Positions 19,149 to 20,607 of a stretch of DNA of 64,000 bases are shown in pieces. The DNA comes from Escherichia coli (lineage in GTDB: Bacteria > Pseudomonadota > Gammaproteobacteria > Enterobacterales > Enterobacteriaceae): assembly GCF_003334315.1 (NCBI RefSeq), contig NZ_QOWR01000001.1; one strand, 5' to 3'. Each line of letters starts with the position of its first letter. Within the stretch, counting starts at the first letter, position 1. Both the position numbers and the translations under genes were made by a program. The notes beneath the pieces were generated by a model. The model saw only the letters and a program-made list of their open reading frames with translations. It was not told the DNA's origin and ran no database searches.

Positions 19149-19712
19149 TCAGCGATGCAGGAAATTAGCCAGCAGTTGATGTCCTTGTTCGCTAAGAATA
19201 CTTTCTGGATGGAACTGCACACCTTCCAGATCCCACTGGCGATGGCGAATCCCCATAATCTCGCGGGTTTCGCTCCAGGCCGTCACGTCAAAGCACGCTG
19301 GTAATGAGTCAGGTTCCACCACCAGCGAATGGTAGCGTGTCACGGTAAGTGGATTTGCCAGCCCCCGAAATACGCCCTCACCGTTATGTGTAATCGGCGA
19401 GGTTTTGCCGTGCATGACCTTTGCGGCGCGCACAACTTTACCGCCAAATGCCTGCGCCATTGCCTGATGACCGAGGCAGACGCCAAGAATCGGCAAGCGC
19501 CCGGCATAGTGGCGAATAACGTCAAGGGAGATCCCGGCTTCATCTGGCGTACAGGGGCCAGGTGAGATGACAATTTTTTGTGGTTTAAGGGCGTCGATAT
19601 CCGCCAGCGTCAACGCATCGTTGCGCTTAACCAGCACATCCGCCCCCAGTTCACAAAAGTACTGGTAGAGGTTCCAGGTAAAAGAATCGTAGTTATCTAT
19701 AAGCAGGATCAT
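19149..19712 (-). CDS. pabA: Aminodeoxychorismate synthase, glutamine amidotransferase subunit
   Basis: 187-aa class-I GATase with catalytic Cys in GVCLGHQ. Confidence 0.9.
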
Positions 19713-19743: not shown

Positions 19744-20346
19744 TTACTCAGATTCCCCGGCTTCGCTTACCACTTTGCTAAATATCATCTGCAGTGCGGT
19801 GAGATCCCCCATTGCCCCACTCTGATTTGCCTGATTCCAGGCCTCTTTTTCGATACCCTGCCAGCTCAGTTGATATCCGGCATGAATCGCCAGTTGCTCG
19901 AAGAAGATCCGCTGTGCCAGACCACTTCCCACCCGGAAGGGATGCAGCACGTTGATTTCACAATAGTAATGCGCCAGCCGCTCGACGAACTTCGCTTTCT
20001 CCAGGCCAACCAGATAACCTTCTTCCTCCAGATCCTGCATCAGGGCATTGCCCTCTTTTTCGATATAAGCAAAGTGGCAGAACGGCGTATCACCCTGATA
20101 AATATCAACTTCACGCAGTTGCCCTGCCCAGTCGAAAATATCCTGATACAGCTGGCGATGGATAGTTCGCAAATGCGGTAAACCGCGCACCAGCGGACCA
20201 AGCTCAATGGTCGCAGCACGCAGCGCCGTCATTTCGTAAGCGGCCTGTTCCAGCCGCTGCTGCTGGCGGATGTTCAGCCGGTTACGCATGATATCAAGGC
20301 CTGGATAAAGATACGGATCGCGCCCTTCGCCGAATTTATCGCTCAT
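19744..20346 (-). CDS. fic: Fic-family protein with degenerate active-site motif
   Basis: 200-aa ORF; motif region reads [12 protein letters not shown] (hand-checked from DNA at 19921-19944) versus canonical HPFx[DE]GNGRxxR. Confidence 0.88.
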
Positions 20347-20503
20347 AGTGACTCCTCAGCTCTTCAAGGCGCGCTAAAGCCTCTGCGGCAGTAAGAGTGA
20401 CTAAAGGCATCTCGACGCCTTCAAGACGGCGACTGGCCTGAAAATTACGATTACGCTGAAGCTCCCAGAGACGGGACTTTTGCTTATCGGTGAGTTTCTT
20501 CAC
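20336..20503 (-). CDS. yhfG: Small Fic-associated antitoxin-like protein
   Basis: Not in ORF track (55 aa). Hand-translated: GTG start at 20501-20503 with GGAGG upstream, stop TAA at 20336-20338, 11-nt overlap with fic start; contains SRRLEG. Confidence 0.7.
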
Positions 20504-20607
20504 TTGATGCCTCCCTGAACGTGTCCATTTGCCACAAGTATAAGCGGCAAATCCGGGTTACGCCGGGAGAGCAGAAGCGCGGGCAAGATTGCCCGCGCGA
20601 GAAATCA

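Follow-up and report, generated by a model that had tools for sequence, protein, structure and literature searches.

Fic and YhfG of Escherichia coli: an altered Fic signature kept beside an intact inhibitory helix

Class I Fic proteins are encoded next to a separate small upstream partner that supplies an inhibitory-helix motif, [S/T]xxxE[G/N], the glutamate of which contacts the Fic signature's second arginine (R2). VbhT/VbhA of Bartonella schoenbuchensis (Protein Data Bank [PDB] codes 3SHG, 3ZC7 and 3ZCB) is one such pair, a plasmid-borne system whose toxin carries the canonical motif and a C-terminal BID domain, and which is a proven AMPylase (a transferase of adenosine monophosphate [AMP]) acting on gyrase and topoisomerase IV. 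The closest solved canonical homologue of the pair we discuss here is Fic-1/AntF of Pseudomonas bijieensis 2P24 (PDB code 8WT0). Fic-1 AMPylates GyrB, and the complex of Fic-1 with AntF takes the AMP off again, a reaction that needs E28 of AntF, a divalent metal and, on Fic-1, an acidic cleft made of E29, E36 and E139 (PMC13327609). The E. coli pair itself, Fic (EcFicT) and YhfG (EcFicA), was crystallized by Stanger, Harms, Dehio and Schirmer (PLoS One 2016; PDB codes 5JFF and 5JFZ), who called EcFicT 'toxin-like' (PMC5033356). Our subject is the yhfG–fic locus of a 64,000-nucleotide stretch of E. coli DNA (the window; contig NZ_QOWR01000001.1 of assembly GCF_003334315.1), in which a preliminary description, made from the sequence alone, had picked out a degenerate Fic motif next to an inhibitory motif still in good order. 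That combination has been known, with crystal structures, since 2016. We think it probable that yhfG and fic are a domesticated, vertically inherited pair of the class I Fic toxin–antitoxin (FicTA) type, whose active site has been remodelled away from ATP, is kept under selection and is gated by YhfG.

The locus is a familiar one. On the minus strand, fic occupies 19744..20346 and encodes a class I Fic-domain protein of 200 residues from an ATG start; yhfG, the FicA-type partner, lies on the same strand at 20336..20503 and encodes 55 residues from a GTG start, both by translation of the open reading frames. The DNA is 100% identical to that of E. coli K-12 MG1655, where the genes are annotated as fic and yhfG between ppiA and pabA; every one of 5426 complete E. 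coli genomes carries the locus. Family models agree with the annotation: Fic is a member of the Fic/DOC superfamily (Pfam Fic PF02661, E = 1.5e-13, residues 58–152; NCBIfam equivalog NF007672 at 430 bits, the cutoff being 181), and YhfG matches Pfam PF10832 (E = 5.4e-24, residues 2–55) and NCBIfam NF007573 (126.9 bits; cutoff, 77). The crystallized proteins come from this same locus and nothing of substance separates them from the window pair. Fic matches chains 5JFZ_A and 5JFF_A at E = 1e-133 or better, differing only at residue 2 (S2G, the glycine probably coming from cloning), residue 27 and the engineered G55R. At codon 27 (20266–20268), the window and MG1655 have Arg27 and both the 5JFF and 5JFZ constructs His27, a strain or construct difference. 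YhfG matches 5JFF_B and 5JFZ_B, the engineered E28G of 5JFZ being the sole difference; as a single-sequence phmmer query, it matched only these PDB entries of its own.

The altered signature is plain from direct translation. The Fic loop, residues 135–146 (19909..19944, minus strand), when set against HPFx[D/E]GNGRxxR, has V139 at the acidic position, S141 for the asparagine and L143 for the first arginine (R1), just as had been claimed for it, and keeps H135, F137, G140, G142 and R146 (R2). EcFicT thus lacks the acidic residue, Asn and R1 of the canonical AMP-transferase signature, HxFx[D/E]GNGRxxR. A literal text search of the literature with the motif string gave no match. The description of YhfG was equally accurate. 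Its gene begins with GTG and ends in an 11-nucleotide overlap with the start of fic (ATGAGCGATAA; 20336..20346, minus strand), an arrangement for translational coupling, and the protein carries SRRLEG, which has the form [S/T]xxxE[G/N], at residues 24–29 (20417..20434, minus strand). By itself, this pattern is weak evidence, [ST]xxxE[GN] turning up by chance in about 3.4–4% of random or shuffled 55-mers. SRRLEG means something because of homology and position: its S24 and E28 align with those of the validated antitoxin AntF, and the pattern is present in 75 of the 80 orthologues described below.

The crystal structures show where the motif goes. EcFicT and YhfG form a stable 1:1 complex that has a melting temperature (Tm) of 63 °C, or 10 °C less with E28G; the end of the first YhfG helix, the SRRLEG segment, is inserted into the Fic active site, where S24 and E28 bond to R146, E28 through a salt bridge, and R25 bonds to T40 (PMC5033356). 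By that account, the glutamate of the motif contacts R2 in the chains that the window pair matches, and the assignment of SRRLEG as a FicA-type inhibitory motif is supported. The same authors called the EcFicT signature degenerate, with R1 replaced by leucine, a hydrophobic residue at the D/E position and serine for asparagine in about half of the homologues, and detected neither auto- nor target adenylylation, even with the inhibition motif mutated (E28G) (PMC5033356). That Fic looks catalytically compromised is borne out, in that ATP- and Mg2+-binding residues are lost and no adenylylation was seen. The comparison with VbhT/VbhA and the assays with the glutamate mutated, both suggested as checks, had in essence been done and published already, and the question of what, if anything, this Fic catalyses is the one with which that paper closes (PMC5033356). 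Neither of the two outcomes named as fatal to the preliminary description has come about: transfer activity has not been demonstrated, and in the structure YhfG does contact the active site (PMC5033356).

How do the characterized relatives compare? Fic-1 aligns with EcFicT at E = 2e-49 and shows the motif HPFREGNGRAQR; VbhT aligns at E = 6e-33 and shows the canonical HPFREGNGRTLR. Partners were searched for with a profile of 23 YhfG orthologues, which matched AntF (8wt0_B; E = 1.1e-3), with the AntF segment NYAASLRLEG aligned and S24 and E28 corresponding, and did not detect VbhA by sequence. AntF, like YhfG, is a small upstream protein of the YhfG family (it was deposited as a DUF2559 protein), and the Fic-1/AntF pair has the same length and numbering as the EcFicT pair: H135 and R146 in one protein, S24 and E28 in the other. 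With VbhT/VbhA, the E. coli pair shares the class I FicTA architecture, the fold and the inhibitory glutamate contacting R2, although VbhA has three helices and YhfG two, with an eight-residue deletion (PMC5033356). EcFicT is unlike VbhT in motif, in proven toxin activity, in plasmid carriage and in the BID domain, and it parts from Fic-1 at V139, S141 and L143.

An altered motif invites the suspicion of decay. To test the published comparisons independently, we surveyed 80 loci, each from a different enterobacterial species. The order ppiA–yhfG–fic–pabA is kept in nearly all of them, the 11-nucleotide overlap in 78, and pabA follows fic by about 33–37 nucleotides in most. Were this an inactivated toxin–antitoxin module drifting toward loss, its motif changes would be neutral. 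The three catalytic-motif positions that are off consensus and the viability of fic knock-outs reported in the literature both fit that idea; the selection analysis does not. Omega was calculated by the Nei–Gojobori method (NG86) over 190 species pairs with usable synonymous divergence (dS), and the medians were 0.085 for fic, 0.122 for yhfG, 0.069 for pabA and 0.027 for ppiA. Purifying selection on both genes is strong, about as strong as on their neighbour pabA. Reading frames are intact in 80 of 80 orthologues of fic and 79 of 80 of yhfG, and in practically all of the 5426 E. coli genomes, and the replaced positions are themselves constrained and covarying. Decay is effectively refuted by the omega values, and we give it almost no credence. 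The altered motif is thus a derived state that has been conserved, and 'degenerate' here is a measure of distance from the family consensus, not of decay.

What has been conserved is revealing. H135, P136, F137, R138, G140, G142, Q145 and R146 of Fic are invariant across the survey, and so is N132. Position 139 is I, L, V, A or F in 78 proteins, threonine in one and aspartate in one; position 141 is divided between asparagine (41) and serine (38), with a single threonine; and position 143, R1, is L, I, M or V in 72. The remaining eight have arginine at 143 and are exactly the eight with E36 and F67 in place of A36 and Y67 (8/8), which matches the covariation described in PMC5033356. The window protein has all the residues of the EcFicT-like subgroup 3 of enterobacterial FicT, as drawn up by Stanger and colleagues (A36, T40, Y67, F71, a hydrophobic residue at 139, another at R1 and an N-terminal DPY motif), and these are widely held: A36 in 67 species, T40 in 80, Y67 in 72, F71 in 75, D10 in 80, P11 in 79 and Y12 in 79.

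YhfG has been kept in step. S24 is invariant in the orthologue alignment, E28 is at least 90% conserved, and E28 is retained in every full-length YhfG whose Fic partner lacks R1. Five proteins make up the exceptions to the intact motif: three from Trabulsiella with Gly29 changed to Arg, one from Edaphovirga with Asp for Glu, and one truncated gene. The three Trabulsiella proteins (loci L039, L046 and L081) read SRRLER beside an R1-less Fic, and Edaphovirga cremea (L080) has a canonical Fic (HPFRDGNGRAQR) with STALDG in its partner. The preliminary description had found the pairing of an intact inhibitor with a compromised target unusual. This stands for the wider FicT family; within the Enterobacteriaceae, it is the rule.

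The wider family shows where the variant came from. A HMMER scan of 1.84 billion representatives clustered at 50% identity gave 5205 relatives of Fic, the best 150 of which were tallied. The motif region is present in 128 of these 150, and strictly canonical in 106; among the 128, the D/E position is E or D in 118, the asparagine position N in 119 and the R1 position R in 116. Leaving out one artefactual sequence and one 511-residue protein, EcFicT-like variants in the best 150 occur only among matches of at least about 65% identity, and the nearest relatives outside the clade, at 45% identity or less, overwhelmingly have the canonical HPFREGNGR. Since these outsiders are canonical, the EcFicT variant derives from AMPylases, and the canonical FicT enzymes surround the enterobacterial form as a small, derived island. 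Three database entries deserve a word of their own. P0003, a 200-residue representative, opens with a YhfG-like N terminus that runs in frame into Fic sequence at about residue 40, and its motif is HPFFVGSGRAQR; this apparent deletion fusion of yhfG and fic would mimic the layout of a class II Fic protein and could be real or an assembly artefact. P0010 (212 residues) is EcFicT-like, with R, P, A, H and T systematically changed to C, F/L, V, Y and I/M, a pattern of coding-strand C-to-T conversion that suggests bisulfite-treated or deaminated reads in the assembly, and hence a database artefact. P0117 is a distant Fic protein of 511 residues (36% identity; motif HPFRRGNGLAIR) with leucine at R1 and arginine at the D/E position; here leucine may have taken the place of R1 independently, outside the enterobacterial clade.

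Taken with the structures, the survey suggests how EcFicT might work. Remodelling has exchanged the Mg2+-binding acidic residue for V, I or L, the beta-phosphate-binding R1 for L, I or M and E36, the partner of R1, for alanine. His135, the anion-nest glycine, R2 and the residues of the docking flap stay invariant. Fic would no longer use ATP for the AMPylation of topoisomerases and would not be a classical toxin. Most likely, His-dependent chemistry is kept but now serves a different phosphate-containing substrate and a different target, a view we prefer because the catalytic histidine and the anion nest are invariant. Stanger and colleagues described a hydrophobic groove of subgroup-specific residues, made of A36, F71 and V139 and bordered by Y67 and T40, and considered that it may hold an alternative substrate (PMC5033356); such a substrate would fit the groove, and the E28–R146 lock would let YhfG go on gating access to the active site. 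There are precedents in Doc, a kinase, and AnkX, a phosphocholine transferase, in which changes of motif or pocket have retargeted the Fic fold with the catalytic histidine kept (PMC5033356). In Doc and AnkX, a basic residue remains at R1 or close to it and the substrates are known, whereas EcFicT is hydrophobic at both the D/E and R1 positions, a combination that has no characterized counterpart.

Could EcFicT have given up catalysis altogether? It would then work by binding or regulation, YhfG being its obligate structural partner, and the conservation we see would be that of fold, complex stability and interface. Three nucleotide- or metal-binding positions have been replaced, every attempt to find an activity has been negative, parts of the surface at a distance from the active site are conserved, and the 10 °C of complex stability that E28G costs means that E28 could be conserved for stability alone (PMC5033356). 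The pattern of conservation speaks the other way. All 80 species keep His135, N132, R146 and the two glycines of the motif, where the general bases of pseudoenzymes usually drift, and the replaced positions are confined to a small range of hydrophobic residues that change together with those of the pocket, a pattern that looks more like a pocket remodelled than one abandoned. Nor would a non-catalytic Fic be without company: the Fic domain of BepC from Bartonella has been reported to act by binding GEF-H1 and not by catalysis. On balance, we consider a pseudoenzyme rather unlikely.

Several things weigh against our preferred account, of a remodelled enzyme under the control of YhfG. Its alternative-substrate step comes from conservation and pocket shape, and no activity, substrate or target has ever been shown. 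Most phosphotransfer reactions known to be catalysed by Fic proteins are difficult to square with a lost metal-binding acidic residue. A 2024 review states that ectopic EcFicT strongly inhibits the growth of E. coli, citing Harms 2015 (PMC10886550), which, if accurate, would fit residual toxin activity. Finally, the type strain of Escherichia albertii has a nonsense codon in yhfG and an intact fic, and there at least gating by YhfG is dispensable.

The E. albertii allele is worth describing. In strain NBRC 107761 (NZ_BBMY01000054.1; locus L005, at about 2880–2882), codon 13 of yhfG is TGA for TGG, leaving a product of 12 residues. Downstream, fic is intact, encoding 200 residues at 94% identity. 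This may be a natural yhfG knock-out, although it is a single genome and a sequencing error is possible. If it is no error, Fic is tolerated without full-length YhfG, which fits the failure to detect toxin activity.

This brings us to the possibility that the pair is a toxin–antitoxin system after all, a cryptic one, in which EcFicT AMPylates topoisomerases, or transfers some other nucleoside monophosphate (NMP) to them, once YhfG is removed, for instance by heat plus cyclic AMP (cAMP). The idea has its attractions. The architecture is that of class I FicTA, with the inhibitory glutamate locking R2; several later papers list YhfG/EcFicT as a toxin–antitoxin system; and there is the historical fic-1 allele, G55R, which causes filamentation with cAMP at 43 °C and is a gain-of-function change that blocks division (PMC5033356). 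The codon concerned, G55 (GGT; 20182..20184, minus strand), is invariant as glycine in 80 of 80 species. The growth inhibition cited in the review (PMC10886550) points the same way; it conflicts with PMC5033356, a later paper by the group of Harms 2015, in which no adenylylation was shown and the protein was called toxin-like, and it sits awkwardly with the nonsense allele of E. albertii. That the group who characterized FicT saw no adenylylation, the mutated inhibitory motif included (PMC5033356), counts against a hidden toxin, as do the loss of R1, the acidic residue and E36, the natural truncation of yhfG beside an intact fic in E. albertii, and strictly vertical, syntenic inheritance in a housekeeping operon, which is unlike that of mobile type II toxin–antitoxin modules. 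We hold a cryptic toxin to be highly improbable.

The evidence on mobility is in line with published work, in which the close homologues of EcFicT were found only in the Enterobacteriaceae, syntenic and vertically inherited (PMC5033356). The patchy, horizontally mobile distribution that is typical of type II toxin–antitoxin modules, if not strictly defining, is absent here. Searching a plasmid collection (tblastn) gave matches of at least 69% identity only in multi-megabase or very large records and in one odd 11-kb record, and homologues that are really on plasmids reach no more than 48% identity. The search thus offers no sign of an EcFicT-like variant carried on plasmids, the high-identity matches being mislabelled chromosomes or the odd record; several multi-megabase E. 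coli records are filed as plasmids in the collection. The small record is NZ_CP069919.1 (H11), an 11,338-bp Klebsiella oxytoca 'plasmid' whose fic and yhfG products are 100% identical to those of E. coli K-12. The chromosomal orthologue of K. oxytoca itself is only about 84% identical to the K-12 pair, and the record probably reflects contamination or the misassembly of a piece of chromosome.

The recent work on Fic-1 raises another question, namely, whether only the forward, ATP-dependent reaction has been lost and the YhfG–Fic complex removes AMP or a related group, with E28 of YhfG as a catalytic residue. The homologous Fic-1–AntF complex is a deAMPylase that needs AntF E28, the same residue by number (PMC13327609). 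Both that glutamate and the catalytic His135 are conserved in the E. coli pair. R1 would be dispensable on Tyr-AMP, which has no beta or gamma phosphate; moreover, E28 is kept in all the full-length partners of R1-less Fic proteins, and the complex is very stable. The cleft is the difficulty. Fic-1 needs metal and the acidic residues E29, E36 and E139, and the aligned residues of EcFicT are Q29, A36 and V139, all neutral. Because these Fic-borne acidic residues, a metal ligand among them, are gone, we rate a deAMPylase role of the Fic-1 kind as very unlikely. No deAMPylase activity has been reported for YhfG–Fic, nor is K-12 known to have a cognate AMPylating Fic.

The surroundings of the genes tell us something about when they are used. 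A GAGGAG Shine–Dalgarno sequence for fic lies within the 3′ end of yhfG, 5 nucleotides before the ATG (20352..20357, minus strand), as seen in the sequence and the alignment, and yhfG has its own, GGGAGG, read 6 nucleotides before the GTG (20510..20515, minus strand); AGGGAGG at this place is conserved across species in the upstream alignment. Scanning upstream of yhfG for a consensus sigma-70 promoter found none. Alignment did better: the spacer between ppiA and yhfG varies, except for a 22-nucleotide block, TTGCCGCTTATACTTGTGGCAA (20529..20550, minus strand), that is nearly invariant in 76 distinct enterobacterial upstream regions and that includes a TATACT –10 element (20537..20542, minus strand) flanked by inverted 5-bp arms, TTGCC and GGCAA. 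An RpoS-dependent, stationary-phase fic promoter with TATACT at –10 and no –35 has been described (Utsumi 1993, as tabulated in PMC5650638), and the block is probably this sigma-S-dependent yhfG–fic promoter. The inverted arms are possibly an operator, though this is speculation. Farther up, after ppiA, is a GC-rich hairpin, GCGCGGGCAATCTTGCCCGCGC (20577..20598, minus strand), whose stem is conserved and whose loop varies among species. A strict scan for terminators with a T-run did not call it; from its position and conserved stem, it is likely to be the ppiA terminator, separating ppiA from the yhfG–fic unit.

On the other side, pabA is co-oriented and starts 31 nucleotides downstream of the fic stop (19149..19712, minus strand; open reading frame and MG1655 annotation), and its place directly after fic in nearly all species is consistent with co-transcription. 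All three genes would then be transcribed from the conserved TATACT promoter, of sigma-S type, with the 11-nucleotide overlap coupling translation of the first two. This arrangement allows a bolder variant, in which the stable YhfG–Fic complex, not free Fic, would be the working enzyme, E28 would be kept for chemistry, and co-transcription with pabA would reflect a role in p-aminobenzoate or folate metabolism in stationary phase. The reaction could be the hydrolytic removal of a modification, or a transfer in which the donor is a non-nucleotide diphosphate whose hydrophobic moiety suits the remodelled groove. Conservation, operon structure and analogy are what this proposal is built from, and we regard it as a long shot.

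On the MG1655 map, the window as a whole begins at about envZ/pckA and extends past prkB. It includes crp, some 4 kb from fic, a proximity that we treat as coincidental. Scanning all 64 kb against Rfam at gathering scores matched no family, which leaves no part for an RNA element at the locus. Elsewhere in the survey, Enterobacter sp. kpr-6 (L027, 3643–4429) has two open reading frames on the opposite strand, of 159 and 117 residues, between fic and pabA, and L035 has a similar gap. The 117-residue frame has a helix-turn-helix-like segment, and the insert looks like a small mobile module of two genes, possibly a genuine toxin–antitoxin pair, that has come to lie beside the domesticated one.

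The gene fic gave its name to the whole Fic family, yet about forty years on its own activity is still a recognized open problem, and literature up to mid-2026 goes on describing the mechanism of EcFicT as elusive. Finding its motif state once more adds no new knowledge. What is added here to the work of 2016 (PMC5033356) are independent counts, omega values, the conservation of the promoter block and the comparison with the deAMPylase work of 2026. From that comparison, the neutral cleft residues provide a sequence argument against a simple transfer to E. coli Fic of the model in which the toxin–antitoxin complex is the deAMPylase. An omega of about 0.09, the invariance of His135 and R146 and the retention of E28 support a site that is functional, not decayed.

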